NCBI GenBank assembly: GCA_965246995.1
Contig: OZ252008.1
Coordinates: 562,323-626,322, forward strand
Origin: Vicinamibacterales bacterium
Lineage (GTDB): Bacteria > Acidobacteriota > Vicinamibacteria > Vicinamibacterales > UBA8438
Reading direction: 5' to 3'
DNA: 64,000 nucleotides
Under the pieces are notes generated by a model. It saw nothing but the letters and a program-made list of their open reading frames with translations. It was not told the origin of the DNA and searched no databases. The position numbers and the translations under genes are program-made. Shown here in pieces: positions 2,181 to 61,896 of the stretch. The first letter of the stretch is position 1, and each line of letters begins with the position of its first letter.

Positions 2181-2338
2181 GAGCCCGTGGTGAAACCCCT
2201 GCTACATTCGAGCGGCGATGCATCCCGCCTGAACGGCGTTGCTCCTCGGTCTCATACGGCCAATATGCTCCCTCGTCGCGCCTTGTCAGGCGAGCGCCTC
2301 ACCGCTCTCGGTGCTACGCGGGGTTTCACCACGGGCTC
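2181..2338 (+). mobile_element. MITE-like palindromic element, copy A (short form, 158 bp)
   Basis: Termini are GGAGCCCGTGGTGAAACCCC ... GGGGTTTCACCACGGGCTCC, perfect 20-bp inverted repeats. It is flanked by CTAG (2177-2180) and CTAG (2339-2342). It is near-identical to five other copies in the window. Confidence 0.85.
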
Positions 2339-3082
2339 CTAGCGCCCGTCCCACTGTTCGAGCATCCAGTTGCCCGCGTCCTGCAGGGACGGAACGTAGC
2401 TGCCCATGTTGAAGTGACCGATCCCTTCGAGGGTCGTGAAGGCGACCGGGTGGCCGGCTGCCTCGAGGCGCTGGAACGCCTCCTCGGCGGGTTCGAAGGG
2501 GACCACTTCATCGACGCGGCTATGGATGATGTGGATCGGCATGGTGCCGAAGGCGTCGGGCGCGTGGTCACCGGGGCGGCCCGCGATGGGGATGGCGCCG
2601 GTGAAGAAGTCGGAGTGCTGCCCCGCGAAGAACCATGTGCCGGCGCCGCCGAGGCTGAAGCCGGTCACGAGGATGCGCGACCGGTCGATCGTGTAGTCGT
2701 CGAGGATCTGCTCGAGCAGCGCCATCACCCCCCGATCGGCTACCTCGGAGGTCCAGCGGCGGGTCGGCACGTCGGGGGCGACCATGATGGCGCCGAGCTC
2801 GCGCAACCCCGGCGCGAAGATGCCTTGCATGTTCCGGCTGCCGTAGTACGCGCCGTTGATGCCGCCGGGGTGGAGCGCCAGGACGAGCGGGCGCGGCTCG
2901 CCCGCCGGGTCGTAGCCGGCCGGCACCGATACGGCGTAAGGCATCTCGCCGTGGCCGTCGATCGTGAAGACCAGATGCTCCATCGTGGGACGTCCTCCCT
3001 GGAATGGGAGAACTACTGCTGTACTGGCTGCCGTCAGTCCCGCCCCCACGATCAGAATGCCGACTGACCGAATGGTACGCAT
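2339..3082 (-). CDS. Secreted alpha/beta-hydrolase (esterase/depolymerase-like)
   Basis: 247 aa with an N-terminal hydrophobic signal, the nucleophile elbow GFSLGG and a C-terminal His region (GIGHF). The stop codon is the reverse TAG of the CTAG flank of MITE copy A. Confidence 0.75.
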   Translation of the reverse strand: MRTIRSVGILIVGAGLTAASTAVVLPFQGGRPTMEHLVFTIDGHGEMPYAVSVPAGYDPAGEPRPLVLALHPGGINGAYYGSRNMQGIFAPGLRELGAIMVAPDVPTRRWTSEVADRGVMALLEQILDDYTIDRSRILVTGFSLGGAGTWFFAGQHSDFFTGAIPIAGRPGDHAPDAFGTMPIHIIHSRVDEVVPFEPAEEAFQRLEAAGHPVAFTTLEGIGHFNMGSYVPSLQDAGNWMLEQWDGR

Positions 3083-3265
3083 TCCGTTGTCCTCCTCAGT
3101 GGCCGCGCGATGCCAAGCTGCACCCGCCGCATGGTAACGTATCGATTTCGGATCGACGTGATCCCGCTGCTCAACTGTAGACCTAAAATTTCGTCCAGGA
3201 CTCGACGTGACCTGCCACTGGCGCTATATTCTTCGTAGCGTTCCACCGCGTCACCTACCGGAGAG

Positions 3266-4486
3266 GTGCCGGGTGTTCGGTGCAGCAAAGCGCGCCTCCG
3301 CGACGATATCACTTGTCTGACGGTGCCGAAGCACAGTCACGAAATCAGGGATCCGATTCACGTCTTTGTGCGTTTGGACAGCACAGAGCGCGATGTCCTC
3401 AATTCTGCTCCGTTTCAGAGGCTCCGCCACATTCATCAGCTCGCTCTGACGTACCTCGTGTATCCGGGGGCCACCCACCGCCGATTCGAGCACTCACTTG
3501 GCGTGATGGAGCTCGCGAGTCGAATCTTTGATGTCGTGACTAACCCCGCCAACATCAGCGAGGAAATCTCCAACCGCTTGGACGAAATTAGCCAGCCGGC
3601 TAAGCTTCAATACTGGCGTCGCGTCCTGAGGATGGCCGCTCTGTGCCATGATATGGGCCATCTTCCGTTTTCTCATGCCGCCGAGAAGGAATTGCTGCCT
3701 AACGGGTGGGACCACGAACGCATCACACGTAGCATTATAGATAGTGAAGAGATGCGGTCCATTTGGAATGGTATGACTCCGCCTCTTCGATCCGCGGACG
3801 TTATTAAATTGGCCATAGGGCCCACGAAGACAGACGACCTTGAGTTCTCAGAATGGGAAGCGATTCTCGGCGAGATCATCGTAGGAGATGCTTTCGGCGC
3901 TGATCGGATGGACTATCTTCTTCGAGATTCCCATCACGCCGGTGTCGCGTATGGCCGGTTCGATCACTATCGCTTGATTGACACATTGCGTATTTTGCCG
4001 GCAAAGGATATCGCGGGGGAAGAGCAAGTCGGAACACCCGCTCTCGGATTACAAGAAGGAGGACAGCAGTCTGCCGAGGCATTGTTACTCGCACGCTATT
4101 TTATGTATTCACAGGTCTATTTTCATCCGGTCCGTCGAATCTACGACATTCACCTCATGGAATTTCTGAAGGAATCGCTGGACGGAGGAACGTTTGCGAC
4201 AGATCCTGTGGACCACTTGCGTTTAACTGACAACGAAGTTACCGCTGCGTTCGTCGAGGCCGCTGGAAACAAGAATGCACGAGGTCATATTCACGCCAGT
4301 CGAATTGTCCAGCGACGGCACTTCCGACGCGTCTATGGACGGAATCCGGTGGATCTTGAGCGGAATCTTGAACCGGGAAGAGCCATATACCAAAGCGTTG
4401 TGCGGCGTGTTGGGGGCGGAGAACGTGAGACACGATCGCCGGCGACCGGGAGGGGGGTCGCCGGATTTTCCGATATTGCTTCATAA
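3266..4486 (+). CDS. SAMHD1-like HD-domain phosphohydrolase (COG1078-type putative dNTP triphosphohydrolase)
   Basis: IRDPIHVFVRL...FQRLRHIHQLALTYLVYPGATHRRFEHSLGV...CHDMGHLPFSH...GADRMDYLLRDSHHAGVAYG match the SAMHD1/YwfO-type HD motifs. An alternative GTG start lies at 3323. The gene sits in a lower-GC stretch. The 3' end may be frameshifted (see findings). Confidence 0.8.
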   Translation: MPGVRCSKARLRDDITCLTVPKHSHEIRDPIHVFVRLDSTERDVLNSAPFQRLRHIHQLALTYLVYPGATHRRFEHSLGVMELASRIFDVVTNPANISEEISNRLDEISQPAKLQYWRRVLRMAALCHDMGHLPFSHAAEKELLPNGWDHERITRSIIDSEEMRSIWNGMTPPLRSADVIKLAIGPTKTDDLEFSEWEAILGEIIVGDAFGADRMDYLLRDSHHAGVAYGRFDHYRLIDTLRILPAKDIAGEEQVGTPALGLQEGGQQSAEALLLARYFMYSQVYFHPVRRIYDIHLMEFLKESLDGGTFATDPVDHLRLTDNEVTAAFVEAAGNKNARGHIHASRIVQRRHFRRVYGRNPVDLERNLEPGRAIYQSVVRRVGGGERETRSPATGRGVAGFSDIAS

Positions 4487-4591
4487 CGATGAGGTTGTTC
4501 CCGCTACTTTGGCGTCGGAAGCGTTGGGGCAGATTCCCGCGGTGTCGGTAGATAACGTGTTCGTCGAACCGTCGAAGCAAAGAGAGGCTGG

Positions 4592-4749
4592 GAGTCCGTG
4601 GTGAAACCCCGGGTAGCACCGAGAGCGGCGAGGCGCTCGCCTGACAAGGCGCGACGAGGAAGCATATTGGCCATATGAGACCGAGGAGCAACGCCGTTCA
4701 GGCGGGATGCATCGCCGCTCGAATGTAGCGGGGGTTTCACCACGGGCTC
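4592..4749 (-). mobile_element. MITE-like palindromic element, copy B (short form, 158 bp, inverted orientation)
   Basis: Same family as copy A. Termini are GAGTCCGTGGTGAAACCCC ... GGGGGTTTCACCACGGGCTC. It is flanked by the direct repeat CTGG (4588-4591) and CTGG (4750-4753). Confidence 0.85.
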
Positions 4750-4808
4750 CTGGAGACTGGGTGGGTGAACATCGCGAAGAGGCGTTGAGCGAAACGGAGG
4801 GATGAGCG

Positions 4809-10711: not shown

Positions 10712-11272
10712 ATGATGCCGGACTTCTTGCGGATTGGCGCGGAGGTGATGATCGCGGTCGCGGCGATGCTCACCGTTCTCTGGCGTTTCAACGATTCGCT
10801 CGGTAAGGAGTTGCGCGCGGACATCAGGGTGCTTGGTACCGAGTTGCGCGGTGACATCAGCACTCTCGGTACCGAATTGCGCGGTGAAATCGGAGCACTC
10901 GATACCGAGTTGCGCGGTGAAATCGGGGCGCTCGATGGCAAGTTGTCCGGTGACATCAGGACACTCGGCACCGAGTTGCGTGGTGAAATCAAAACGCTCG
11001 GCACGGAGTTGCGCGGTGAAATCGGGGCACTCGATACCAGGTTCTGCGGTGAAATCGGCACGCTTGGCACGGAGTTGCGTGGTGACATCAGTGCTTTGCG
11101 TGTGGACAACAGAGAGCTGCTCGCCCGAGTGTCAAGAATTGAGGGGCTTCTTGAACTTCGCGCAGAACCGCGCACGAAGGTGGGCGCCACTCAGTCGTCG
11201 TCCGGGTCCAGTCCGGCGGACGATCGCGATGACCCCAAGGAGGATGCGGACAACGCTGTCGCGGGCGGTTAA
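10712..11272 (+). CDS. N-terminally membrane-anchored protein made of 11-residue (hendecad) tandem repeats
   Basis: The ATG at 10712 follows a GGAGGA site. A TM helix (FLRIGAEVMIAVAAMLTVLW) is followed by nine repeats of the type LGTELRGEIGA and an acidic disordered tail. The track ORF start at 10592 is probably too far upstream. Confidence 0.65.
   Translation: MMPDFLRIGAEVMIAVAAMLTVLWRFNDSLGKELRADIRVLGTELRGDISTLGTELRGEIGALDTELRGEIGALDGKLSGDIRTLGTELRGEIKTLGTELRGEIGALDTRFCGEIGTLGTELRGDISALRVDNRELLARVSRIEGLLELRAEPRTKVGATQSSSGSSPADDRDDPKEDADNAVAGG
10808..11104 (+). repeat. Nine tandem 33-bp repeats (consensus GAGTTGCGCGGTGAAATCGGGGCACTCGATACC), in frame in the CDS
   Basis: Unit boundaries counted by hand are 10808, 10841, 10874, 10907, 10940, 10973, 11006, 11039 and 11072. 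Confidence 0.9.
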
Positions 11273-14130: not shown

Positions 14131-14183
14131 GTGCCGGTCGGGAGACCGGCACACCGACCGGCGAACCGACCGGCGCAGCGGCC
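14131..14183. repeat. GC-rich hairpin plus ~12-nt repeat element, copy 1 (intergenic)
   Basis: GTGCCGGTCGGGAGACCGGCACACCGACCGGCGAACCGACCGGCGCAGCGGCC. The hairpin is GCCGGTC-GGGA-GACCGGC, followed by (N5)GACCGGC units. Confidence 0.75.
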
Positions 14184-15500: not shown

Positions 15501-15536
15501 GGGGCGGGAGTATATGGGAAAGGGTGGGTTTTATTT

Positions 15537-15586
15537 CGCCGGTCGGAGACCGGCGCACAGACCGGCGCACAGACCGGCGCACCATG
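15537..15586. repeat. GC-rich hairpin plus 12-nt repeat element, copy 2 (intergenic)
   Basis: GCCGGTCGGAGACCGGC followed by GCACAGACCGGC GCACAGACCGGC GCACC. Confidence 0.75.
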
Positions 15587-15635: not shown

Positions 15636-16979
15636 GTGCACATCATCATCATTGGCGGCGGCGACATCGGCTATCCGCTGGCCAAGGCCCTCTCGGCGCA
15701 GCACGACGTTTTCCTGGTCGACCGCGATCCGCTGCGCGCCCACCGTTTTTCCCACCTCGACGTGGAGTTCGTCGGCGGCAGCGGCACGAGCCCCGACGTG
15801 TTGCGGAACGCCGGCGTCGAGAAGTGCGACCTGCTGATCGCGGCGACGCGCCTGGACGAGGTGAACATCGTCGCCTGCTCGCTCGGGAGTGGCCTGGGCG
15901 CGAAGCGGACGGTCTGCTTCGTGACGAAGGCCGACCTGCTGGAGCAGCGGAGCGGGAACGACAGCCTCCAACGCAACTTCGGCATCGACGAGATCATCTG
16001 GCCGGAAGCGCAGCTCGCGGCGGGGATCGAGCGGATCATCATGGCGCCCGGCGCGGTCGACGCGGAGCTGTTTGCCGGCGGGCGGATCGAGCTGCTCGAG
16101 TTTCGCCTCGACGCTGGCTCGCCGTTCGTCGGCCGCGAGGTGGCGTCGCTTGCGCTCCCGGCCGGCGTCGTCATCATCGCGCTCAAGCACGAGCACTCGA
16201 CGTCTATTCCGAGCGGCCAGACCGTGCTGGAGGCGGGCGACAAGGTGGTGCTGATGGGGACGCGCGACGGGATGACGGACCTGCGCCCCATCATCGCGCC
16301 GGCGAGCAGGGACTCCGACCGGCAGATGGTCACCATCATCGGCGGCGGCGATGTCGGCTTCCGGCTTGCGCAGAGCCTCGACCGGGTGGATGGCATCCGT
16401 CTGGTCGTCATCGAGCGCGAGCGCGAGCGGGGTGAACTGCTGGCCGCGGCGCTCCGCAACGCACTGATCCTGCGGGGCGACGGTACCGACCTCGAGCTGC
16501 TCGAGTCGGAAGAGATCGGCCGGAGCGATGTGCTCGTTTCGGTAATCGACAACGACGAGCGGAACCTGCTCGCCTCGCTCCTCGGCCACCAGTTGGGCGT
16601 GCGCAAGGTGATTACGCGCGTCAGCAAGCCGTCGAACCATCATCTCTTCGAACGGGTCGGAATAGACGTGGCGCTGTCGGCGCGTGGCGCGGCGGTCACG
16701 TCCGTCATCCACGGGATTGATGGCGGCCGCGCGAGTCTGCTCGCCGTCCTCGAGGAGGGACAGGCACGCGTGGTTGAACTGGCCGTGCCGGGCGGGTTCC
16801 AGTCGACCGCGGTACGCGATCTCGGCCTGCCGAAGGATTCGATCATCGGATCCGTTCTGCGCGACGGCGCGGTAATCGTGCCCCGCGGCGACGATCGCGT
16901 TCAGGGAGGCGATCGCCTGCTGGTCTGCTGCACCGAGCCGGCCGTCCGCGGCGTGCGCGACCTGTTCGCCCACGCGTAG
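15636..16979 (+). CDS. trkA: Trk potassium uptake system, NAD-binding subunit
   Basis: Two RCK/TrkA-N repeats are present (HIIIIGGGDIGYPLAKAL and MVTIIGGGDVGFRLAQSL). 447 aa with a GTG start. Confidence 0.9.
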   Translation: MHIIIIGGGDIGYPLAKALSAQHDVFLVDRDPLRAHRFSHLDVEFVGGSGTSPDVLRNAGVEKCDLLIAATRLDEVNIVACSLGSGLGAKRTVCFVTKADLLEQRSGNDSLQRNFGIDEIIWPEAQLAAGIERIIMAPGAVDAELFAGGRIELLEFRLDAGSPFVGREVASLALPAGVVIIALKHEHSTSIPSGQTVLEAGDKVVLMGTRDGMTDLRPIIAPASRDSDRQMVTIIGGGDVGFRLAQSLDRVDGIRLVVIERERERGELLAAALRNALILRGDGTDLELLESEEIGRSDVLVSVIDNDERNLLASLLGHQLGVRKVITRVSKPSNHHLFERVGIDVALSARGAAVTSVIHGIDGGRASLLAVLEEGQARVVELAVPGGFQSTAVRDLGLPKDSIIGSVLRDGAVIVPRGDDRVQGGDRLLVCCTEPAVRGVRDLFAHA

Positions 16980-16984
16980 CCCAG

Positions 16985-17178
16985 GAGCCCGTGGTGAAAC
17001 CCCTGCTACATTCGAGCGGCGATGCATCCCGCCTGAACGGCGTTGCTCCTCGGACTGCGTTCAGTCCGCGGACTGCGTCAGTCCGCGGTCGCAATATGGC
17101 CAATATGCTCCCTCGTCGCGCCTTGTCAGCCGGGCGCCTCACCGCTCTCGGTGCGACGCGGGGTTTCACCACGGGCTC
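16985..17178 (+). mobile_element. MITE-like palindromic element, copy C (long form, 194 bp, two central hairpin modules)
   Basis: It has the same termini as copy A. The centre carries GGACTGCGTTCAGTCC and GGACTGCGTCAGTCC. Flanks are CCAG (16981-16984) and CTAG (17179-17182). It lies between trkA and trkH. Confidence 0.85.
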
Positions 17179-17192
17179 CTAGCACCCAGTCG

Positions 17193-36929: not shown

Positions 36930-38375
<1,446 letters not shown>

Positions 38376-39973: not shown

Positions 39974-39977
39974 CTAG

Positions 39978-41681: not shown

Positions 41682-41685
41682 CTAG

Positions 41686-41861: not shown

Positions 41862-41887
41862 CTAAGCCGCTGGCCGCGCGAGGCCGG

Positions 41888-46676: not shown

Positions 46677-46678
46677 GA

Positions 46679-51369: not shown

Positions 51370-53574
51370 ATGAAAGGGCTGATCGCCCTTGTCGTCGTCG
51401 TCTTCACCGGCGCGTCGGCGTCTGCTGCTCCCCTGACCTGCGACCTGGGCCAATACACGGCGAAGGACGGGCTCGCGGTAACCGTCGAATCGGATGTGCT
51501 GAGCGTCGCGTGGGCCGGCGACGACGGCAGCGACCTGCGGATGCGTTTTGTCATCCAGGACGGGCAGCCGATCGTGCGGGAGCTGGCGATTCGCCGGCAG
51601 GGCGGCGCCTGGGCCACGCTCGGTCAGGATCTCACACCCGAATTCCATGTCACGAGCGGCGTCCGCCGGCTGTCGTACCAGCAGTCACGGCCGCTCGAGG
51701 GGACGGGCGTCGAAATCGACCAGGAGGTGATCGACAGAGAGAAGTGGTACGTCTTCTGGGACGCGCCGCTTCTCGTTCCCGGCGTGACCGAGGGCAGAAA
51801 TCCCCGGAACTGGGGTCTCCCGCGCTCGCCGGAGGAAATCCGTCACATGGATGCGTCGTTCGCCACCTCGTCGTGCAGCGTGAAGACGGATGGCGCGCGC
51901 CTGGAGGTGACCTTTCCGGGCCTGTCGATGGGCATCTTCGCCGGCAATCTGCGCTTCACGGTCTATCGCGGCACGAACCTCGTGCGGATGGAGGCCATCG
52001 CGATGACCGAGGAGGACTCGGTCGCCTACATCTACGAAGGGGGCTTGCGCGGCTTTTCGACCGACACGCTGTCGCGTGTGGTGTGGAACGACCTCGGCGG
52101 CAACGCGCAACAGTACGGGTTCGGCGGCGTGACGAACGACACGAGGGTCGCGGTGAGGGCCGCCAACCGCGTGCTGGTCGCAGAAGGCCAGGGCGGGTCG
52201 GTCGCGGCGTTTCCGCCGCCCCACGCCTTCTTCTGGACACGGGAAGTGGACATCAATCTCGGTTACGTGTGGTACCGGCACGACGAGGGTGACCAGTTCG
52301 GCATCGGCGTGCGGCAGCACGATCGTGAAGAAGACCCGCGCTACGTCGAGAACTTCGCGTTGTACAACGCGCCGCCGGGCACCATGCAGCGGATGGCGAT
52401 GTACTTCTACGCCGGGACCGGCCCCGCGGAGGCCACACGCCAGGATGTGCTCGCCTTCACCTACGGTGACAAGTTCAAGGCGGTCCCGGGCTACCAGACG
52501 TTCGTTAACCACTTCCACCTCCGGTTCACCGAGCGGCAGCGCGCGCTCGGGTCGCTGGACTACAAGTTCCCGGACCTGGAGGCGATGAAGGCGGTGGGCC
52601 TCAACATCGTCGGGTTGAGCGATTTCCACGGCGACATGAATCCGAACGACCCTGGCCCGCTGCGGTTCGATGACTGGCGCGACTACGGCCTGGCGTCGCA
52701 GAAGGCCTCCGACGCCGACTTCCTCGTGACGCCCTGGGAAGAGCCGAGCGCGTACTTCGGCGGACACTTCAACACGATGTTCCCCAAGGTCGTGTACTGG
52801 TCGAAGGTGCGCGAGCCGGGGCAGCCGTACACCGAGCACGACCCCACCTACGGGACGGTGTACCACGTCGGCAACACGGATGACATGCAGCAGCTCCTGG
52901 ACGACGAGGACGGCTACTGGTTCCATGCGCACCCGCGCACCAAAGGCACGACGGGGTACCCGGATCACCTCTTCGACACGTCGTATCTGCGCAACGACCG
53001 CTACCTGGGCGTCGCCTTCAAGCCGGGCATGGGCCAGGATCTGTCGGAAAAGCGGATGTGCGAGTATCGCTGCTTCGACGCGGTGGACACGATGAACAAC
53101 CTCCTGGCCGGCTCCGGTCTGCGGCCGAAGTACATCATCGCGGACGTCGATACGTATCAGAAGGGCCCGAACGACGACATCTATGCGAACTTCCCGGTCA
53201 ACTACGTCAAGCTGGAGCGGTTGCCGAGGGCGGACGAGGACTGGAGCCCGATCCTGACCGCGCTCCGGAACGGCGACTTCTTCGTGACGACGGGCGAGGT
53301 TCTGATTACGAACCATGCTGTCGAAGGCACTGGGAACACGCGGACGTTCGGGGCCGACGTGCAGTGGACGTACCCGCTTGAATTCGTCGAAGTGGTCTGG
53401 GGCGATGGCACGAACATCGACCGGCGCATTGTCTCCGCCACCGATCTGCCTCCGTTCGGATCCCGGCGGTTCGAGATCCCGTTCGACGCCACCGGGAAGG
53501 CGTGGGTCCGCTTTGCCGTTTGGGACTCGGCCGGTAACGGCGCCTTCGTGCAGCCGATGTGGGTGAAGCCATGA
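51370..53574 (+). CDS. Secreted protein of unknown function, paralogue A (734 aa), with His-rich metal-hydrolase-like motifs in the C-terminal half
   Basis: It has a signal peptide. The motifs FVNHFHLRF, GLSDFHGD, GGHFNTMFP and WFHAHPRTKGTTGYPD suggest a metal-dependent (PHP-like?) fold. No confident family assignment is possible. Confidence 0.6.
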   Translation: MKGLIALVVVVFTGASASAAPLTCDLGQYTAKDGLAVTVESDVLSVAWAGDDGSDLRMRFVIQDGQPIVRELAIRRQGGAWATLGQDLTPEFHVTSGVRRLSYQQSRPLEGTGVEIDQEVIDREKWYVFWDAPLLVPGVTEGRNPRNWGLPRSPEEIRHMDASFATSSCSVKTDGARLEVTFPGLSMGIFAGNLRFTVYRGTNLVRMEAIAMTEEDSVAYIYEGGLRGFSTDTLSRVVWNDLGGNAQQYGFGGVTNDTRVAVRAANRVLVAEGQGGSVAAFPPPHAFFWTREVDINLGYVWYRHDEGDQFGIGVRQHDREEDPRYVENFALYNAPPGTMQRMAMYFYAGTGPAEATRQDVLAFTYGDKFKAVPGYQTFVNHFHLRFTERQRALGSLDYKFPDLEAMKAVGLNIVGLSDFHGDMNPNDPGPLRFDDWRDYGLASQKASDADFLVTPWEEPSAYFGGHFNTMFPKVVYWSKVREPGQPYTEHDPTYGTVYHVGNTDDMQQLLDDEDGYWFHAHPRTKGTTGYPDHLFDTSYLRNDRYLGVAFKPGMGQDLSEKRMCEYRCFDAVDTMNNLLAGSGLRPKYIIADVDTYQKGPNDDIYANFPVNYVKLERLPRADEDWSPILTALRNGDFFVTTGEVLITNHAVEGTGNTRTFGADVQWTYPLEFVEVVWGDGTNIDRRIVSATDLPPFGSRRFEIPFDATGKAWVRFAVWDSAGNGAFVQPMWVKP

Positions 53575-55838
53575 TGAAGACCACGATCACATCTGTCGCG
53601 TCCGTACTCTCCGTGACCGCGCTGGCCGCAGCTACCGTTGGGTTCGGCGCGTCGCCGGCGTATGCCGAGGCGCTGAACTGCAGTCTGACCGGATACCAGG
53701 CATCGCCAGGGCTGACCGCCGCCGTGGCCGATGACACACTGGCCCTCACCTGGGACGGGGACCCTGGCCAGGAAGTACGGCTCAGGCTGATGATCTCGGG
53801 CGGCGCGCCCACGATTCTGGACCTCGCGGTGCGGCGCAAGGGCGCGCGGTGGGCCACGCTGGTCAGCAACGCGAGGCCTGAATTCCGGGTAGCCTCCGGT
53901 CTGCGCCGGATCACCAATCAGCAACTGCGGCCGCTCCAGGCGCTCGGCGTCGACATCACGGCGGAGATCATCGACGAGGAAAAGTGGGACGCGTTCTGGG
54001 ACGCGCCCTTGAACCTCCCGGGCGGCGACGCGGCCCACGGAAACTCGACACCCCCGCTCGAGGGCCTCGATCATCAGCCGGGGCTGCCGCGCCTGCCGGA
54101 AGAGGTCACGCGCGCCACCGCGACGTATCAGGCGCAGGGATGCGAAGTGACGACCAACGGGGCGCGCCTTGAAGTGACCTTCCCCGGCGTCGAGTTGGGC
54201 GTCTTTGCCGGCCGGCTGCAATACACGGTGTTCCGGGGCACGAACCTGATCCGGCAGGAGGTCATTGCCAAGACAGACGAACCGTCGGTGGCCTACAAGT
54301 ACGAGGCCGGTCTCAGCGGGTTGGCGATTCAGCCGACGTCCCGGATGGTATGGCGCGACATCTCGAATCTCTGGCAGGACTATCAGTTCGGCGGCGCTCT
54401 GAACGAGAGCCCGGTGTCTCTGAAATCGAGCAACCGGCTGGTCGTTGCCGAAGTTCCAGGGGGGGCTATTGCGGCGTTCCCGCCGCCGCACAATTTCTTT
54501 TGGGCCCGCGAACTCGAGTTCAACCTCGGGTACACCTGGTATCGCAAGGATAGCGAGACGTCGTTCTCGTTCGGCGTCCGACAGCCCGACGGCGAGGAAG
54601 AGCCGACAGGCGTGGGCCGCGGAGCCGAGGATATCCGGCAGAACTCCGCGCTCCGCAGCGCGAGGCCGGGCACCTGGCAGCGGATGCCGGTCTTTTTCTA
54701 TGTCAGCGCCGGATCCGGCGAGGCCACGCTGGAGTCGGCGCTGGCCTTCACCCGCCAGGACACCTTCAAGCCGCTCGAAGGCCACAAGGTCATGGCGACC
54801 CACTTTCATACCCGATTCGTGCGGCGGCTGCAGGCATCCGGCATGGACACGAGGATTCGCGAGCTCGATGCGATGAAGGCGATCGGGATCAACATCCTGG
54901 GGCTGGGCGAGAGTTCGCGCGGCCCCGATCGCCTGAAGAACCAGGCTGATTACTTCGAAGGCGCCCGGCGACATTCCGACAAGGACTTCCTGATCATGCC
55001 GAGCGAGGAGGATTTTTCCGGCAATCTCGGCGGGCACAACGACGTCCTGCCGTCGAAGCCGGTCTTCTGGACGCAAGGCCGCGCCGATGGCCAAGCGTTT
55101 GTCGAGGAGCATCCCACGTACGGCACGGTCTATCACGTCGGCAACCCGGCGGACATGATGGAGATGGCCAAGCGGGAGAACATGCTCATCTACATGGCCC
55201 ATCCGCGCTCGAAGGGCTCGACCGGATTTCCGGACGCGATCAAGGACACGGCCCACTTTCGGCACGAGCACTATCGGGGGATCGGCTGGCGCTGGGGGAT
55301 GGGCATCGACGGGTCGGAGCGGCGCCTGTGCGAGCTTCGCTGCCTGGACCTGTTGGACGACATGAACAACTGGGTCGCCGACCAACCCACCCCGGCCAAG
55401 TATCTGCATGCCATTTCAGAGACCTATCAGAAGGGACCGGGGGACGACATCTACGCGAACAATCCGGTCAGCTACGTGAAGATCGATCAGCTCCCCGGGT
55501 CCGACGACTGGAGCCCGATCATCGACGCCATGAAGCGCGGCGACTACTTCGTGACCTCGGGAGAGGTGTTGATCCCCTCCTACGGCATCGAGGGAACTGG
55601 CGCCGACAGCACGATCATCGCCGAAGTGGAGTGGACCTTTCCGCTGGAATTCGTCGAGGTCGTCTGGGGAGACGGGCAGACGACTGACCGGCAGATCGTC
55701 TCGGCGACCGACCTGTTGCCGTTCGGCCGCCAACGGTTCGAAATCCCGTTCGACGCCACCGGGAAGAAATGGGTGCGTTTCGCCGCGTGGGACTCGGCAG
55801 GTAACGGCGCACTCGTGCAGCCGATCAAGCTCCAGTGA
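53571..55838 (+). CDS. Secreted protein of unknown function, paralogue B (755 aa)
   Basis: Its ATGA overlaps the stop of paralogue A. It is colinear with A (for example FPGVELGVFAGRLQYTVFRGTNLIRQE against FPGLSMGIFAGNLRFTVYRGTNLVRME, and the same C-terminal ...WVRFAAWDSAGNGALVQP). Confidence 0.6.
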   Translation: MMKTTITSVASVLSVTALAAATVGFGASPAYAEALNCSLTGYQASPGLTAAVADDTLALTWDGDPGQEVRLRLMISGGAPTILDLAVRRKGARWATLVSNARPEFRVASGLRRITNQQLRPLQALGVDITAEIIDEEKWDAFWDAPLNLPGGDAAHGNSTPPLEGLDHQPGLPRLPEEVTRATATYQAQGCEVTTNGARLEVTFPGVELGVFAGRLQYTVFRGTNLIRQEVIAKTDEPSVAYKYEAGLSGLAIQPTSRMVWRDISNLWQDYQFGGALNESPVSLKSSNRLVVAEVPGGAIAAFPPPHNFFWARELEFNLGYTWYRKDSETSFSFGVRQPDGEEEPTGVGRGAEDIRQNSALRSARPGTWQRMPVFFYVSAGSGEATLESALAFTRQDTFKPLEGHKVMATHFHTRFVRRLQASGMDTRIRELDAMKAIGINILGLGESSRGPDRLKNQADYFEGARRHSDKDFLIMPSEEDFSGNLGGHNDVLPSKPVFWTQGRADGQAFVEEHPTYGTVYHVGNPADMMEMAKRENMLIYMAHPRSKGSTGFPDAIKDTAHFRHEHYRGIGWRWGMGIDGSERRLCELRCLDLLDDMNNWVADQPTPAKYLHAISETYQKGPGDDIYANNPVSYVKIDQLPGSDDWSPIIDAMKRGDYFVTSGEVLIPSYGIEGTGADSTIIAEVEWTFPLEFVEVVWGDGQTTDRQIVSATDLLPFGRQRFEIPFDATGKKWVRFAAWDSAGNGALVQPIKLQ

Positions 55839-57526: not shown

Positions 57527-58399
57527 ATGCTGGCAGCAGAGCGGCATCGTAAGCGGGGGCTCTTCAAGAGCGAAGACCGACCGGCGGAGCTGGGGTGGCG
57601 GTTCCGCCTGCACGAGATCATCTTCGAAGCGGACACGCCCGCCGGCAAGCTCTTCGACGTCGCACTGCTGCTTGCCATCATCGCCAGCGTGGCGGTGGTG
57701 ATGCTCGAGAGCCTGCCGAACGTGCGGCCGCAGTTCGCCTCCCTGCTCCTCCAGATCGAGTGGGTGTTCACGCTCCTGTTCACCGTCGAGTACGCCGCGC
57801 GCATCGCGGCGGTGCGGTATCCGTCGCGCTACATCTTCAGTTTCTTCGGGTTGATTGACCTGATGGCGATCATCCCCACCTGGATCAGCCTGGTACTGCC
57901 CGGGGGCCAGGCGCTGATCGCGATCCGCGTGGTCCGGCTGATCCGCGTATTCCGTGTCCTGAAGCTCGGGCACTACCTGATGGGCGCGGAAGAGCTGACG
58001 GATGCGTTGCGCGAGAGCCGGCCGAGGATAGTCGTCTTTATGGCCGCAGTCGCGTCGATCGCGGTGGTGATGGGCGCGTTGATCTACCTGGTCGAAGGGG
58101 AGGAAAACGGCTTCACGTCGATCCCGCGGGGGGTCTACTGGGCCATCGTGACGATAACGACGGTCGGTTACGGCGACATCTCGCCGCAGACCACCGTCGG
58201 GCAGTTCGCCGCCGTGATCCTGATGCTGATTGGCTACGGGATCATCGCGGTGCCTACCGGCATCTTTTCGGCCGCCATCGCGCGGCGGGGGACGGACCCG
58301 ATATCGACGCAGGCGTGCCTGGAATGCAGCCGGGAGGGTCACGACCCGGACGCCGAGTTCTGCAAGCACTGCGGCGCCGACCTGCACCCGGGGGACTAG
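57527..58399 (+). CDS. Voltage-gated K+ channel (6-TM Kv-type) with a C-terminal zinc-ribbon tail
   Basis: The S4 segment is IRVVRLIRVFRVLKLGH and the selectivity filter is TTVGYGD. The tail is CLECSREGHDPDAEFCKHCGADL (CxxC...CxxC). The stop TAG (58397-58399) lies in the CTAG flank of the IS. Confidence 0.85.
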   Translation: MLAAERHRKRGLFKSEDRPAELGWRFRLHEIIFEADTPAGKLFDVALLLAIIASVAVVMLESLPNVRPQFASLLLQIEWVFTLLFTVEYAARIAAVRYPSRYIFSFFGLIDLMAIIPTWISLVLPGGQALIAIRVVRLIRVFRVLKLGHYLMGAEELTDALRESRPRIVVFMAAVASIAVVMGALIYLVEGEENGFTSIPRGVYWAIVTITTVGYGDISPQTTVGQFAAVILMLIGYGIIAVPTGIFSAAIARRGTDPISTQACLECSREGHDPDAEFCKHCGADLHPGD

Positions 58400-60018
58400 C
58401 AGCCTGTCGGACTTAGGCGCGGCAAACGCGCGTGGAAGCGACTTGGCACCTGTTTGAACGACGCCCTGTGTCTCTGTGCCGGGAGGGCCGCTTCGACCGA
58501 AACGGGGACTGTATCCTGGCCATCGGTCGCTGACGGCGCCTGGAGGTCTTTCTGACGCCTCTGGTGGGTCGCGAACACGCCGAGTTCCGCCCCGTATAGC
58601 CCCGTCATGCCAGCCTGAGGTTGTGCACGCGTCGGCAGTTATACGCCAGCGTTACCAAGGCCCATTCGCCCTCCACCTTCTCAAGACCCCGCAGCAGAAA
58701 CTGCCGGAAGCCCATCGCCTGCTTCACGATCCCGAACACCGGCTCCACCGTCTGCTGGCGCAAACGGTAATGCGCCCGGTGCTCCGGCAGTGCCATCTTC
58801 TCCTGCATCGACTTGATCCAGTCCGCCTGCGGCTCCTTCGCCAGCTGCTCCGGCGGCTCCGGTCGGAAGTCGTGCCGGCGCCGTTGGCCTTCCGCCCCCG
58901 TCGCCACCAACACCTCCACACCGCGACCTGCCAGTTGCGACACCTCGCTGCCCGTCGCGTAGCCACTGTCCGCCAGTACCCGATCCGCCGCGCCCACCGC
59001 CGTCGGTATCGCGTCCACGTCCGCCACCAACTCGTTGCGGTCGCTCGCGCACACGCTCACCCGCGACCCCAACACCAACTGACTGCCGTCGGCATCCACC
59101 ACCGCCTGCGCGTTGTATGCCTGGCGGTACTCATGGCGCCGGCTCTTGCGCATCAGCGCACTGTCCGCATCCGTCAGGTTGATCTGCGCCTTCGCCTCCG
59201 GCGCGTCCCTCGGCGGCGTGATGTGCCGACCCTTGCGCGATCCCGCACGCCGCTCCCGCGCCGCCACCGTGCGCTCGTACTCCGCCCGCTCCGCGTCCGC
59301 ACGCGCCTGCGCACGCCGTTCCAACTCCGCGCACGCACGGTCCAGCTTCGCCCGTAGCGTCTCGCGCCGCGACAACTCCTCCGGCAGACCCTGTGGGTCC
59401 GGCACGTCGTCCGTGTCGGCGTGCTCCGCCTGATCCAACAACCCCTCGATCTCGCCTCGCAACTGCTCGCGCAACGCCCCCGCACGGTCGTAGCGGATGC
59501 TGTTGCGCTTGTTCGCGTTCGCGTCCACCTTCGTCCCGTCCACGCTCACCGTCCCAACACGCAGCAACTGCAGCTCCTTCGCCAGCAGCAGTACCTGCAG
59601 GAACGCCTCCGCTACCGCTTCGAAGTTGCTGCGCCGGAACGTGCAGATCGTGTCGTGGTCCGGATGACAGTTCGCCGCCACGTACCGAACGCCAATGTCC
59701 CGATACGTCGCCCGCTCGATCCGACGCGAGCCGAAGATCCCGTTCGCGTAGCAGTACACCAGCAACGCCAGCATCATCCGCGGGTGATACTGCGCCGATC
59801 CGGTGCCCCGTTCGTTCACCTGGAACCGCTCCAGCGGCACCCGTTCCACCGCCTCCACCACGAAGTGCGCCAGATCGTCCTCAGGCAGCCAATCGCGCAG
59901 GTCCGGCGGCAGCAGATACAACTGCGACTGGTGCCGCTGTACAAAATTCGGCATCTACTTCTACCCCCTCAACTCGACAAGCCCCATTATAAAACCCGGG
60001 CCTAAGTCCGACAGGCTG
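58400..60018 (-). mobile_element. IS1182-family insertion sequence, copy 2 (1619 bp, a different element from copy 1)
   Basis: It has perfect 19-bp inverted termini, CAGCCTGTCGGACTTAGGC ... GCCTAAGTCCGACAGGCTG. It is flanked by CTAG (58396-58399) and CTAG (60019-60022). Confidence 0.88.
58605..59954 (-). CDS. IS1182-family DDE transposase
   Basis: MPNFVQRHQSQLYLLPPDLRDWLPEDDLAHFV...YHPRMMLALLVYCYANGIFGSRRIERATYRDIGVRYVAANCHPDHDTICTFRR...VSVDGTKVDANAN. Confidence 0.88.
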   Translation of the reverse strand: MPNFVQRHQSQLYLLPPDLRDWLPEDDLAHFVVEAVERVPLERFQVNERGTGSAQYHPRMMLALLVYCYANGIFGSRRIERATYRDIGVRYVAANCHPDHDTICTFRRSNFEAVAEAFLQVLLLAKELQLLRVGTVSVDGTKVDANANKRNSIRYDRAGALREQLRGEIEGLLDQAEHADTDDVPDPQGLPEELSRRETLRAKLDRACAELERRAQARADAERAEYERTVAARERRAGSRKGRHITPPRDAPEAKAQINLTDADSALMRKSRRHEYRQAYNAQAVVDADGSQLVLGSRVSVCASDRNELVADVDAIPTAVGAADRVLADSGYATGSEVSQLAGRGVEVLVATGAEGQRRRHDFRPEPPEQLAKEPQADWIKSMQEKMALPEHRAHYRLRQQTVEPVFGIVKQAMGFRQFLLRGLEKVEGEWALVTLAYNCRRVHNLRLA

Positions 60019-60022
60019 CTAG

Positions 60023-61733
60023 CCCGGATTTCTCACCGTTGTAGATACAAGAGACTGCCTGTGATGGCGTAAAGTGTTGTGGCCGCAATACTTTCACACC
60101 AGACACGGAGGCAGCCTCTTGTCCACACAGTGTACGCCAATCCAACTTGAATTTCCGCGTGTCGGCCGCCGCCGACTGGTGGCGCGTTTCGGTGGCGGGC
60201 GGATTACCTCCAACGCGGGCGCGCTATTACTGCAGGCCGTGGAAGCGTGCACGCAGGTGTGCCGGCGTGCGGCGCGGTGCTTCCAGGATCACCGGGACGG
60301 GCGGTGGGTGGAGCACACGGTCGAGGAGTTAGTGACGCAGCGGGTGTTTGGCCTGGCGCTGGGCTACGAAGACCTGAACGACCACGACACGCTGCGGCGC
60401 GACGCGCTATTGGCGGCGGTGGTGGGCAAGGCGGACCCGACCGGGGCATCCCGGGTGCGGGCGGCGGACCGCGGGTCGGCCCTGGCGGGCAAGAGCACGT
60501 TGAACCGGCTGGAGTTGGCGGGGCCTGACGCGGAGACGGACCGCTACAAGAAGGTGAGCTATGACCAGGCGGCGCTCGATGCGCTGCTGGTCGACCTGTT
60601 CATCGAGGCCCACCCGCAGCCGCCCGTGCGCATCGTGCTCGATGTCGATGCCACCGACGACCCGCTGCACGGCCAACAGGAAGGGCGCTTTTTCCACGGC
60701 TACTACCGGCACTACTGCTATCTGCCGCTGTATGTCTTCTGCGGCGCGCACGTGCTGTGTGCACGGCTCCGGCCGGCGAACATCGATGCGGCGGCCGGCG
60801 TGGTCGATGAACTGGCGTGGATCGTGGACCGCGTGCGGCAGGCGTGGCCGACGGTGGCCATTCTGGTGCGCGGCGACTCGGGCTTCTGCCGGGACGCGTT
60901 GCTGAACTGGTGCGAGGCGCACCAGGTGGACTATCTCATCGGGGTCGCCAAGAACGACCGCCTCAAGGCGCAACTGGCGCCGGCGATGGTGCAGGCCCAG
61001 GCCCAGTGCCAGGCGAGCGGTCAGCCGGCCCGGGTGTTCGCCGACTTCGGCTATCGCACGCGCAAGAGCTGGAGCCGGGAGCGGCGGGTCGTCGGCAAGG
61101 CCGAGCACCTGCCGGCCGGGCCGAATCCGCGCTTCGTGGTGACCTCGCTGCCGGCAGACCGCGTCCCGGCCCAGCCGCTGTATGAGGACCTGTATTGCGC
61201 CCGCGGCGATATGGAGAACCGCATCAAGGAGCAGCAACTGGCCTTGTTTGCCGACCGCACCAGCAGTGCCACCCTGCGGGCCAACCAGTTGCGCCTCTAC
61301 TGGTCGACCTTGGCCTACGTCCTGTTGCACGCGCTCCGCAGCCGGGCTTTGGCAGGCACCCGGCTCGCCCGCGCCCAATGCGACACCTTACGCCTCCGGC
61401 TGCTCAAGGTCGGCGCCCATATCCGTGTCACCGCACGCTGCGTCTGGGTCGCGTTGACCGACTATCTGCCTGACGCCGACCTGTTCATCCTCGCCGCCAA
61501 CCGCTTGCACCAAGCGCGCGCACCCGCCTGACGCCCCAGTCCAACGCCAGACCACGTCCGCAGCTACCCGGTGGACTACCCCGGGGCCGGCCCGCTGCGC
61601 CCGACACGCCGCCGTCGGTGTCGCAACCGCCCCGTCCGCCGCCTTCCAACCTCTCCCGCGCGTCCGTGCTGGACCTCCTGCGCCGTAAACTCACCGCTTC
61701 AGCCTCGCGCCGGGTGGCTGTGAGAAATCCGGG
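60023..61733 (+). mobile_element. IS1380-family insertion sequence, copy 2 (1711 bp)
   Basis: The inverted termini are CCCGGATTTCTCAC ... GTGAGAAATCCGGG. It is flanked by CTAG (60019-60022) and CTAG (61734-61737). Confidence 0.85.
60074..61531 (+). CDS. IS1380-family DDE transposase
   Basis: ARFGGGRITSNAGALLLQAVE...VFGLALGYEDLNDHDTLRRD...LAGKSTLNRLE...IVLDVDATDDPLHG. Confidence 0.88.
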   Translation: MLWPQYFHTRHGGSLLSTQCTPIQLEFPRVGRRRLVARFGGGRITSNAGALLLQAVEACTQVCRRAARCFQDHRDGRWVEHTVEELVTQRVFGLALGYEDLNDHDTLRRDALLAAVVGKADPTGASRVRAADRGSALAGKSTLNRLELAGPDAETDRYKKVSYDQAALDALLVDLFIEAHPQPPVRIVLDVDATDDPLHGQQEGRFFHGYYRHYCYLPLYVFCGAHVLCARLRPANIDAAAGVVDELAWIVDRVRQAWPTVAILVRGDSGFCRDALLNWCEAHQVDYLIGVAKNDRLKAQLAPAMVQAQAQCQASGQPARVFADFGYRTRKSWSRERRVVGKAEHLPAGPNPRFVVTSLPADRVPAQPLYEDLYCARGDMENRIKEQQLALFADRTSSATLRANQLRLYWSTLAYVLLHALRSRALAGTRLARAQCDTLRLRLLKVGAHIRVTARCVWVALTDYLPDADLFILAANRLHQARAPA

Positions 61734-61737
61734 CTAG

Positions 61738-61896
61738 GAGCCCGTGGTGAAACCCCCGCTACATTCGAGCGGCGATGCATCCCGCCTGAACGGCGTTGCT
61801 CCTCGGTCTCATACGGGCCAATATGCTCCCTCGTCGCGCCTTGTCAGTCGGGCGCCTCACCGCTCTCGGTGCGACGCGGGGTTTCACCACGGGCTC
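61738..61896 (+). mobile_element. MITE-like palindromic element, copy F (short form, 159 bp)
   Basis: It belongs to the same family. Flanks are CTAG (61734-61737) and CTAA (61897-61900). Confidence 0.85.

Follow-up and report, generated by a model that had tools for sequence, protein, structure and literature searches.

A CTAG-targeting MITE family of the Vicinamibacterales that duplicates TA and probably depends on an IS1182-type transposase

Bacterial MITE-like repeats of 100-160 bp that lie between genes are known from the Correia elements of Neisseria and the ERIC elements of Enterobacteria, which form long hairpins when transcribed and carry internal modules that vary their length. Correia also duplicates TA. 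The repeat family described here, found in a window of 64,000 nucleotides of DNA from a Vicinamibacterales bacterium, has these same properties, but it bears no sequence relationship to Correia or ERIC, its hosts belong to a different phylum, and the targeting of CTAG and of stop codons is its own. The promoter, IHF-site and RNase III functions named in comparison with Correia and ERIC are not in evidence for it. A 100-nt MITE with GG-type ends, MITEPsy1 of Pseudomonas syringae, inserts at CTAG or YTAA and was assigned an IS5-superfamily origin and a 4-nt duplication (PMC3189936). In contrast to MITEPsy1, the present element duplicates the central 2 nt only, is longer and forms a full hairpin.

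Two groups of insertion sequences also come close. Those of the CTAG-targeting IS1182 subgroup have in common with the MITE the junction CTA↓G...C↓TAG (arrows, junctions), the signature GGAG/GCAG-YC-YGT and the host lineage, and one of them (IS1182 #2 of the window) has smaller palindromic derivatives. They differ in that the MITE contains no transposase gene, possesses 55-nt complementary arms that IS1182 ends lack, and has a terminal inverted repeat (TIR) that departs from every IS1182 end seen after ~13 nt. IS630 elements and the MITEs derived from them resemble our element in TA duplication, preference for TA in CTAG and cut-and-paste DDE logic. For IS630, duplication of TA within CTAG was described by Tenzen and Ohtsubo (1991; cited in PMC2170065), and for the IS1182 family a 4-bp duplication by ISPse1 (PMC3281130) and a GGCC target of ISPsy36 (PMC8027508) were reported. 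These reported IS1182 duplications and targets count against an IS1182 source, and the IS630 behavior fits the target of the MITE.

Table 1. Mobile elements, modules and the interrupted gene in the window (lengths of MITE copies include the terminal G and C).
Feature	Coordinates	Strand	Remarks
MITE copy A	2180-2339	+	160 bp, short form; perfect TIRs 2180-2199 and 2320-2339
HD-domain phosphohydrolase gene	3266-4805	+	tblastn with homologue P0004, reconstruction
MITE copy B	4591-4750	-	160 bp, short form, inverted; flanks CTGG/CTGG
MITE copy C	16984-17179	+	196 bp, two central 18-nt modules
Two tandem 18-nt hairpin modules, GGACTGCGTTCAGTCC and GGACTGCGTCAGTCC	17052-17084	+	tip of copy C
MITE copy D	26776-26953	+	178 bp, one central module
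Single 18-nt modules	26844-26858 (copy D), 41780-41794 (copy E)		pattern scan
IS1182-family IS #2	38375-39974	+	1600 bp; TIRs GGAGTTTGCGCCGCAG, GGAGTCTGCGCCGCAG; CTAG at both junctions
IS1380-family IS a	39978-41681	+	1704 bp; ends CCCGGATAATTC...; 4-bp CTAG duplication
MITE copy E	41685-41862	-	178 bp, one central module, inverted
IS1182-family IS #1	58399-60019	-	1621 bp; TIR GCAGCCTGTCGGACTTAGGC; CTAG at both junctions
IS1380-family IS b	60023-61733	+	1711 bp; at CTAG between IS1182 #1 and MITE F
MITE copy F	61737-61897	+	161 bp, short form

The six repeats are copies of a previously undescribed non-coding MITE of ~160 bp. An earlier note on this DNA had recognized them as such, i.e. as a non-coding, TIR-bounded, target-duplicating, multi-copy mobile repeat, and this reading stands. 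All six were present at the positions it gave: a window scan for the TIR GGAGCCCGTGGTGAAACCCC allowing up to 3 mismatches returned 12 matches where 0.01 were expected, and copies A-F could be aligned along their entire length. Each copy is bounded by perfect 20-nt TIRs, GGAGCCCGTGGTGAAACCCC and its complement. Since the TIR reaches one base further on each side than was noted (2180-2339 and not 2181-2338 for copy A), it includes the last base (G) of the left CTAG and the first base (C) of the right one. The arms are complementary over ~55-58 nt, shorter than the ~70 bp per side first described, and the entire element is a single long imperfect hairpin. Its centre of ~45 nt is conserved and non-palindromic and may hold one or two extra 18-nt mini-hairpins. 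This modular centre was correctly described before: the alignment displays the extra modules as insertions of +18 and +36 nt, giving with 0, 1 or 2 modules the length classes 158/158/159, 176/176 and 194 nt in the earlier numbering, and a pattern scan found the module GGACTG-N3-4-CAGTCC nowhere in the window outside the MITE copies. Copies D and E are 98% identical and have one module variant in common, which means that this variant was itself copied. A recurrent 51-aa open reading frame had no match in Pfam. As a MITE family this is an ordinary kind of element with a few instructive features.

Comparison of 72 copies showed that C-TA-G is the preferred target of the MITE, which inserts at the TA and duplicates it. 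The true ends are GGAGCC...GGCTCC. The inner flank base (left G, right C) is almost invariant, whereas the outer flank bases are free to vary and never have a mirrored counterpart on the opposite side (for example TTAG/CTAG, GTAG/CTAA, CTAG/CTAA and ATAG/CTAT). The duplication is confined to the central dinucleotide, as in TA/TA, CA/CA and TG/TG. Copy A, for instance, which scored 189 bits with nhmmer, has TA duplications at 2178-2179 and 2340-2341. The flanking tetramers had been read accurately (CTAG/CTAG for A and D, CCAG/CTAG for C, CTAG/CTAA for E and F, CTGG/CTGG for B) and the CTAG preference holds, but the duplication is of 2 bp and not of 4 bp as had been supposed. Of the 4-bp flanks, the inner base is part of the element. 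The flanks of copy B represent a duplicated CA dinucleotide when read in the orientation of the element.

Copy B also allowed reconstruction of an insertion. The conserved HD-domain phosphohydrolase gene has a frameshift near 4395, and copy B cuts off its final ~21 codons (4750-4805). Excising 158 bp together with one CTGG (162 nt) restores the frame, and the resulting C-terminus, ...VSVDNVFVEPSKQREAGDWVGEHREEALSETEG followed by a stop codon, aligns colinearly with 40 homologues. Scored with BLOSUM62, the reconstruction averaged 42.6 with one CTGG, 25.5 with none and 21.4 with both. The same state of gene and copy B was found on an independent contig (L092).

The MITE occurs widely in the Vicinamibacterales, an order of soil bacteria. 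A TIR scan using one genome per species gave at least 91 loci, and the matches listed were nearly all from Vicinamibacterales MAGs. In these loci and the window nhmmer detected at least 111 separate matches, at least 72 of them full length. The full-length copies come from the genomes of at least 22 Vicinamibacterales species, and their most common length is 158 bp. The MITE is supported as mobile, with copies occupying unrelated loci. Identities of 95.8-97.6% within one genome, compared to an average of 86.6% between genomes, support recent amplification. The search for empty sites in relatives that the earlier note proposed yielded one filled/empty difference. OZ253576.1 is filled (L050, 1243-1447) and the orthologous position in OZ244838.1 (L087) is empty; these genomes are 92% identical and two other MITE sites are filled in both. 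The empty site does not carry a single CTAG but reads CCGG... where the filled site has CTAG..., and is not base-precise, so it could reflect a deletion in OZ244838.1 instead of an ancestral empty site.

The earlier note placed all copies at gene 3' ends or in operon spacers; most do lie at gene 3' ends, and copy B interrupts the 3' end of its gene. When gene direction is judged from codon periodicity, 64 neighboring genes read toward the MITE and 33 away from it, and 14 flanking gene pairs are convergent against 3 divergent. A codon-periodic open reading frame of at least 100 codons takes its stop codon from the flanking TAG at 33 of the 144 MITE ends. Copies A and D each separate two convergent genes whose TAG stop codons both lie within the flanking CTAGs. 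The neighbors of A encode a Rv0623-like antitoxin (1971-2180, +) and an alpha/beta hydrolase (2339-3082, -), those of D a gamma-glutamyltranspeptidase (25049-26776, +) and an AAA_14/DUF4143 ATPase (26953-28158, -). Copy C occupies the trkA-trkH spacer (TrkA 15636-16979, TrkH homology from ~17202). That the flanking CTAG often supplies the TAG stop codon of an abutting gene agrees with the strong bias of the copies toward 3' ends. Duplication of TA would rebuild the stop codon on both sides of the MITE, and such insertions would therefore be nearly harmless.

The MITE is presumably moved in trans by a DDE transposase, and its terminal sequences point to an enzyme that probably comes from the CTAG-targeting IS1182 subgroup. 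This subgroup has the terminal signature GGAGYCYGT and the CTA↓G junction, and includes two members in the window. IS1182 #2, whose transposase (38380-39759) scored 363.9 bits with NF033551 IS1182 (cut-off 270), has an inverted repeat that is 95% complementary and a junction, CTA↓GGAG..., of the same structure as that of the MITE. The transposase of IS1182 #1 (58605-59954, -) scored 304.5 bits with the same model (cut-off 270), and the terminal 12 nt of this element equal the MITE end at 8 positions. An inverted-repeat search recovered the termini of 68 of 80 metagenomic IS1182-family relatives, most of which read CTA↓GGAGYCTG.... With a position weight matrix of IS1182 ends, which is partly circular since the ends were chosen by a motif that fixes the first eight positions, the MITE TIRs scored 8.5-10.9 bits and ranked in the top 6 of the 112,358 20-mers of the window; the window IS1182 ends scored 11.9 and 13.4, the IS630 ends -8.5 and -15.6 and an IS1380 end -40.5. 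Over the terminal 12 nt the MITE agrees with IS1182 at 7-8 positions, with IS630 at 3-6 and with IS1380 at 2-3. The comparison with IS ends suggested earlier thus gave a resemblance to IS1182 that fades beyond ~13 nt, but no insertion sequence with identical ends. Mini-palindromes of ~48 bp with the TIR of IS1182 #2 occur at two loci (L004 and L082), which shows that this lineage does spawn miniature derivatives. An autonomous element with the 20-nt TIR of the MITE was not found in the 91 listed genome loci, 80 metagenomic IS1182 loci or viral contigs, so the mobilizing enzyme is assigned at the family level only. The IS5-type source proposed earlier was close as a family guess, the best match being IS1182, an IS5 relative, but not in its 4-bp duplication. 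Taken as a whole, a MITE inserting at the TA of CTAG and moved in trans, probably by an IS1182-subgroup enzyme, is the best explanation, and we consider it likely to be correct.

Mobilization by an IS630/Tc1-mariner transposase, which would make the MITE a bacterial Stowaway-like element and not an IS1182 derivative, is the strongest competitor. A TA duplication in a preferred CTAG is classic IS630 target behavior (Tenzen and Ohtsubo 1991; cited in PMC2170065). Two MITE-rich genomes contain an active-looking IS630-family element (1.2 kb, 3 copies, 99% identity, NF033545 131 bits) which inserts as CTA↓G...C↓TAG, often adjoining MITE ends. The MITE is also palindromic along its whole length, which is typical of MITEs of the IS630/Tc1-mariner superfamily and counts for this explanation. 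However, the ends of the resident IS630 element, GTGGTCCGTCACG... and GTGCTGTGCCATC..., are dissimilar to the MITE tips (6/12 and 3/12 identical positions) and score negatively with the IS1182-end matrix where the MITE scores positively. No IS630-type gene was found in the window, and none with the MITE TIR among the 91 listed loci. An IS630-type source is therefore unlikely in our view.

When folded, every window copy forms a single long imperfect hairpin, with z = -6.6 to -9.9 relative to shuffled sequences. Both sides change in 22 of 60 hairpin pairs (87 covarying cells, compared with 21.8 after shuffling and 1-11 in slid controls), compensatory substitutions keep the hairpin across at least 17 genomes, and for several pairs three different pair types occur. 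All 50 sequences retain a tandem T.G (U.G) pair unchanged, while neighboring pairs covary. Since compensatory changes maintain pairing, the long hairpin is under constraint, and the MITE is structurally constrained as well as mobile. This covariation exceeds what TIR recognition needs and leaves room for a structural function. It could even be argued that the MITE is primarily a selected structured nucleic acid, such as a long RNA hairpin that stabilizes the 3' UTR, is targeted by RNase III or insulates convergent genes from each other, with mobility merely its historical origin. Conservation of the 158-bp length and the unpaired centre between species and the 3'-end and convergent-gene bias agree with this, as does a promoter-like CTGACA-16-CATATT in the conserved centre. 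Of the covariation and own promoter that the earlier note had taken as signs of an RNA gene, the covariation is strong, but the promoter-like sequence is a 9/12 match, expected by chance about once per 4 kb. Furthermore, the orientation of the MITE is unbiased with respect to co-directional host genes (8 sense, 7 antisense), and its G.U and A.C mismatches do not consistently favor either strand (three invariant G.U columns, 4-5 subfamily-specific A.C columns). No Rfam family matched even at E<=1, and the RNAalifold consensus does not recover the long hairpin. The hairpin lacks a following T-tract and thus does not qualify as an intrinsic terminator. Gene truncation, as by copy B, and truncated solo ends, as found at several loci, typify selfish DNA. 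We consider primary selection as a structured nucleic acid improbable.

A REP/BIME-like element or IS200/IS605-type PATE, moved as single-stranded DNA by a Y1 (HUH) enzyme to a fixed tetranucleotide with no duplication, would match the conserved tetranucleotide at both borders, the strong hairpins and the intergenic, high-copy occurrence, but was already disfavored and is hardly credible, as the perfect TIRs extend to the tips and are not subterminal hairpins, non-canonical flanks co-vary as direct repeats (CA/CA, TG/TG), the copy B reconstruction needs a duplication, 158 bp far exceeds the REP size of 20-40 bp (PMC3733652), and neither the window nor the examined loci showed a Y1 transposase gene.

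The tetranucleotide CTAG is rare in this genome of 67% G+C: the window has 25 occurrences against 82 expected, with mobile-element junctions making up 11 of them. Each MITE end recreates CTAG together with its TA, and MITE ends thereby become landing pads for CTAG-seeking insertion sequences. IS1380, IS1182 and IS630 elements adjoin MITE ends at common CTAGs in the window and at L043, L038, L062, L044 and L090. In the window, IS1380 a (NF033539, 364 bits, cut-off 180) sits between IS1182 #2 and copy E, which adjoins its right end through the common CTAG 41682-41685, and copy F adjoins the right end of IS1380 b (NF033539, 384.8 bits) at CTAG 61734-61737; the other flank is CTAA in both copies. 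The role of MITE ends as CTAG landing pads accounts for the two [IS1182][IS1380][MITE] arrays of the window.

The 20-nt terminal inverted repeat (TIR) GGAGCCCGTGGTGAAACCCC gave 12 matches in the window at up to 3 mismatches, against 0.01 expected, and these form six inward-facing pairs that bound six copies (A to F) of a MITE, here a non-coding hairpin repeat of about 160 bp. The copies could be aligned end to end and were also recovered as direct and inverted repeat families, in agreement with the six TIR-bounded elements described in the earlier note. Their positions agreed as well, but each end lies one base further out because the terminal G and C are part of the TIR. As had been proposed, the length classes differ by 0, 1 or 2 central 18-nt modules of the form GGACTG-N3-4-CAGTCC, which was confirmed by the alignment and by a pattern scan that detected no such module elsewhere in the window. 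On folding, a single long, imperfectly paired hairpin was obtained for each copy (z-scores from -6.6 to -9.9), and the palindromic arms were about 55-58 nt long, shorter than the 70 bp estimated before. The recurrent 51-aa ORF and an overlapping 150-aa ORF had no Pfam match and the ORFs were not the same between length variants, in line with the earlier view that the repeated peptide does not reflect coding capacity. The density in the window is approximately one MITE per 11 kb.

Coordinates of the MITE copies (terminal G and C counted) and insertion sequences in the window
Feature	Coordinates	Orientation	Length	Remark
Copy A	2180-2339		160 bp
Copy B	4591-4750	inverted	160 bp
Copy C	16984-17179		196 bp
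Copy D	26776-26953		178 bp
Copy E	41685-41862	inverted	178 bp
Copy F	61737-61897		161 bp
IS1182-family #1	58399-60019			transposase ~40% identical to that of #2
IS1182-family #2	38375-39974			transposase ~40% identical to that of #1
IS1380-family a	39978-41681
IS1380-family b	60023-61733

A TIR scan covering one genome per species returned at least 91 loci, nearly all of them in MAGs of Vicinamibacterales/Vicinamibacteria (Acidobacteriota); the handful of exceptions were chance single matches. Vicinamibacterales are abundant, mostly uncultured soil bacteria. With a profile built from the six copies, at least 111 non-overlapping matches were found in the listed loci and the window. Of these 72 were full length, originating from at least 22 species-level genomes and having a modal length of 158 bp when the terminal G and C are left out. 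The TIRs are conserved in these 72 full-length copies among the matches listed, and the flanking sequences are unrelated between loci, a few orthologous pairs excepted. Copies of one genome share 95.8-97.6% identity whereas the mean across genomes is 86.6%, which fits separate recent amplification in each lineage. Copies D and E represent a common one-module variant and are 98% identical, indicating that length variants propagate as such. Searches of viral contigs and plasmids, and of the searchable literature with the TIR string, gave no match to the MITE. Solo ends were present at loci from other genomes or metagenomes (L007, L013, L022, L030, L036, L042, L066, L069, L077 and L079), and in many of them only CTAG and 26-60 nt of the right arm precede unrelated sequence. 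Such solo ends are truncated copies or deletion remnants.

Copy B interrupts a gene for an HD-domain phosphohydrolase within its 3′ end. Homologues are about 441 aa long and are directly followed by the next gene. Relatives with 73% amino-acid identity were too diverged to provide empty sites at the DNA level but were usable for reconstruction at the protein level. In-silico removal of the 158-bp body together with one CTGG (162 nt) restored the ORF, which then ended in ...VSVDNVFVEPSKQREAGDWVGEHREEALSETEG and a stop codon, with the ATG of the next gene directly after. The restored C-terminus was colinear and gap-free with homologues such as ...SIDYVYAGRSLHDRAREWWREHREEVIQ..., and the mean score against 40 homologous C-termini was 42.6 when one CTGG was kept, as compared to 25.5 with none and 21.4 with both. 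The HD-domain gene (3266-4486) is frameshifted near 4395 both in the window and in an independent metagenome contig, L092, and in the window it has about 58 nt at 3920-3977 that L092 lacks. It is possible that the gene has been decaying since the MITE was inserted.

Since contig L092, which is 99.5% identical, also has copies A and B, these are not assembly artefacts. No empty site for A or B was found, L092 being the only near-identical contig and having both sites filled, and an exact-protein look-up of the GGT gene for an empty site gave no record. Presence/absence was observed between the genomes OZ253576.1 and OZ244838.1, which are approximately 92% identical at the DNA level and have two filled sites in common. 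A third site holds a 198-bp copy in one of them (locus L050) that is missing in the other (locus L087). Because the empty site is not base-precise, it shows presence/absence but not duplication.

The tetramers flanking the window copies were exactly those given in the earlier note, i.e. CTAG/CTAG for A and D, CCAG/CTAG for C, CTAG/CTAA for E and F, and CTGG on both sides of B, which it had explained by a 4-bp duplication at YTAR/CTAG targets as made by IS5-type transposases. Canonical sites are ambiguous in this respect, as CTAG·GAGCC...GGCTC·CTAG and C-TA·GGAGCC...GGCTCC·TA-G (dots mark the element ends) are identical in sequence. Flank statistics of the 72 full-length copies among the matches listed point to a 2-bp target-site duplication. 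In about 70 of the 72, a G adjoins the body on its left side and a C on its right side, whereas the outer bases are variable, differ from one side to the other in 12 copies or more, and are never mirrored (TTAG/CTAG, ATAG/CTAG, GTAG/CTAA, CTAG/CTAA, ATAG/CTAT); a TTAG/TTAG or CTAA/CTAA pair did not occur among the 72 copies listed. When the central dinucleotide deviates from TA on both sides it is usually a direct repeat, either CA/CA (copy B, L031, L058) or TG/TG (L088, L089). The non-canonical flanks thus indicate that the element ends in GGAGCC...GGCTCC and duplicates TA in a preferred C-TA-G context. With the inner G and C fixed and the outer bases unequal, the four flanking bases are not all duplicated and the 4-bp explanation was abandoned; a 3-bp duplication was rejected since it fits locus L091 only. 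At L024, L021 and L016 the flanks match as inverted repeats (CCAG/CTGG, CTGG/CCAG), which falls outside the TA-duplication model, and it is precisely here that the orthologous copies L021 and L031 differ.

The tetranucleotide CTAG is strongly depleted in the window, occurring 25 times with 82 occurrences expected from the dinucleotide content, and 11 of these sites form the borders of the MITEs and of four insertion sequences. Copies A and D lie between convergent genes, each of which terminates at the TAG of the CTAG next to it. In the 72 copies among the matches listed, 33 of 144 ends are flanked by a TAG that terminates a codon-periodic ORF of 100 codons or more. Judged by codon periodicity, 64 flanking genes point toward the element and 33 away from it, with 14 convergent versus 3 divergent arrangements. 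Between co-directional genes the orientation of the element showed no preference (8 versus 7). A TA duplication inside C-TAG would rebuild the stop codon on both sides, from which we infer that such insertions should be close to neutral. In this way a rare tetranucleotide would direct the MITE to harmless positions at gene 3′ ends, and two new targets for other elements would arise from each insertion.

The two IS1182-family and two IS1380-family elements in the window are all above NCBIfam cut-offs and all bounded by CTAG. Together with copies E and F they make up two arrays of the order IS1182, IS1380, MITE (38375-41862 and 58399-61897), in which neighboring elements share a CTAG at each junction. 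Their components have diverged to 37-40% amino-acid identity and are not oriented alike. The arrays have the appearance of independent accumulations at CTAGs that MITE ends recreate, rather than of a single unit that was duplicated.

To relate the MITE to a transposase, 80 metagenomic relatives of the IS1182 transposases were searched for inverted repeats, and termini were recovered for 68. Most of these end in CTA·GGAGYCTGTCGG... or ...GGAGTCTGCGCGG..., and both window IS1182 copies also have ends of the form CTA·GGAGYCTG, which makes this a subgroup-wide IS1182 signature. On a matrix of these ends the MITE TIR scored 8.5-10.9 bits, within the top 6 of 112,358 background 20-mers; the window IS1182 ends scored 11.9 and 13.4, IS630 ends -8.5 and -15.6 and an IS1380 end -40.5. 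Ungapped identity at the tip was 7-8/12 for IS1182, 3-6/12 for IS630 and 2-3/12 for IS1380. The best IS1182 match to the full MITE TIR was 13/20 (right end of locus L126), and identity over the full TIR length was not encountered. From the end sequences we consider it somewhat probable, with moderate confidence, that the MITE belongs to the IS1182-type subgroup. For members of the IS1182 family 4-bp duplications or a GGCC target have been reported (PMC3281130, PMC8027508).

The main alternative is that the MITE is moved by an IS630-family transposase. The TA duplication would agree with this, and TA within CTAG is a documented target of IS630 (cited in the reference list of PMC2170065). Two MITE-rich genomes contain an apparently active IS630-family element (NF033545) whose CTAG/TA behavior is the same. 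However, the ends of these resident elements match the MITE at only 3-6 of 12 positions and are negative on the end matrix. The IS630-family element is 1.2 kb long, encodes a two-ORF (frameshift) transposase and was found at L043 4426-5641, L038 3180-4392, L066 5616-6828 and L016 1-678. Several copies are 99% identical in OZ253664.1 and copies in OZ253581.1 are 93-95% identical; all are at CTAG, often adjoining a MITE end.

An autonomous parent of the MITE was not found in any of the searches. Among the loci listed from the TIR scan (at least 91) there were no MITE-TIR pairs 0.7-3 kb apart. The candidate L091 resolved into two separate MITEs, and solo TIRs, considered as possible parent ends, proved to be either truncated copies or fusions with another small repeat; tblastn with the window IS1182 and IS1380 and the L043 IS630 transposases placed no gene beside any solo TIR. 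None of the 80 metagenomic IS1182 loci had an end within 4 mismatches of the MITE TIR, and viral contigs and plasmids held no autonomous element with such TIRs. In a profile search of 5.8 billion proteins all of the best 120 hits were closely related to the two IS1182 copies in the window. At L004 2913-2960 and L082 5267-5315, palindromes of about 48 bp consist of two TIRs of the IS1182 #2 type (GGATTCTGCGCCGCA...) and are a second, even smaller derivative family of that lineage.

The hairpin itself is under constraint. RNAalifold consensus folding gave local hairpins instead of the long stem, and therefore the long stem from the minimum-free-energy fold was tested directly on a set of 50 distinct short-form copies taken from 17 genomes, in which 89.9% of cells were paired. 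Both sides changed in 22 of 60 stem pairs, amounting to 87 cells, as compared to 21.8 ± 7.5 in shuffles (0 of 500 reached the observed value) and 1-11 in slid controls. Several stem pairs occur as G:C, C:G and A:U, a tandem T.G (U.G) pair is invariant with covarying adjoining pairs, and the center is conserved yet unpaired. The earlier note had held that covariation could speak against a mobile repeat; covariation is indeed present, but mobility is not overturned by it. The left TIR has subfamily-specific A.C mismatches, due to which neither strand is clearly favored. Rfam gave 0 hits with the whole window at gathering thresholds and 0 hits with copy C at E≤1. Without orientation bias or an Rfam match, the constraint is not attributable to RNA function; a requirement of the transposition machinery and a property of the DNA hairpin are equally possible causes. 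The center contains a promoter-like CTGACA-16-CATATT on the antisense strand, pointing to the left arm (2262-2289 (-) in copy A, 4641-4668 (+) in copy B), which is weak with a 9/12 consensus match.

We consider it unlikely that the hairpin, with its conserved bulges, invariant U.G, compensatory changes and fixed 158-bp length, was kept across Vicinamibacterales because it is functional. If so, it could be a domesticated RNA or DNA structure between convergent genes, e.g. an insulator or an element at transcript ends that arose when the transposon inserted into overlapping TAG stops. It could also be that an IS1182-type transposase recognizes a folded, hairpin-shaped substrate, which for a DDE family would be a novel requirement. 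Fold-back regeneration is an improbable origin of the covariation since conserved mismatches persist beside compensatory pairs.

With a length of 160-196 bp, TIRs, a target-site duplication, no coding capacity, presence/absence polymorphism and occurrence at many unrelated loci, the repeat has the features of a MITE, except for a cognate autonomous element with matching TIRs. Many accepted MITE families likewise have no known autonomous partner, and a missing partner thus makes the source less certain but leaves the class unaffected. The repeat is a new, order-wide MITE family and not a new kind of element; the earlier note was right in outline in calling it a mobile MITE but wrong on the duplication length. 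Mechanistically it behaves like MITEs of the IS630 or IS5 type, and its form is similar to that of Correia and ERIC elements. REP/BIME elements, which are RAYT-associated, are 20-40-bp palindromes with GTAG/CGTC tags and a Y1 transposase (PMC3733652); identity with these was rejected because the MITE is 158 bp with TIRs and a duplication, and no such tag or gene was seen.

The MITE breaks short-read assemblies, as seen for contig L092 which ends inside copy A. It also makes spurious ORFs such as the recurrent peptide, truncates genes (copy B) and nucleates insertion-sequence pile-ups. A family model would improve MAG annotation and the MITE could act as a lineage marker. The current understanding of transposition is unchanged by these findings, and the hairpin covariation without orientation bias poses a small, testable question, namely what constrains palindromic MITEs.

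Other repeats were observed as well. A short repeat, GGGGCTGCGCCCCAAACCCCCGGCAAGCGCTAGCGGGGACCCC, occurs in OZ253664.1 (L038 4392-4600, L017 2260-2445, L016 6710-6865 and L027 4112-4482) and is at times fused to a single MITE arm, giving chimeric elements of about 200 bp. In the window, a 33-bp tandem repeat of at least 8 copies with 64-79% identity is present at 10764-11126, where it is contained in long ORFs of either strand. Between genes, at 14132-14183, 15536-15575, 22195-22282 and 33055-33094, a short palindromic repeat rich in GC, TGCCGGTCGGGAGACCGGC...CCGACCGGCG, recurs and may be a separate REP-like family. The 88-nt tRNA-Gly(ccc) called by ARAGORN at 54450-54537 is inside a long ORF (53559-55838), one of a paralogous gene pair, and is probably a false positive.
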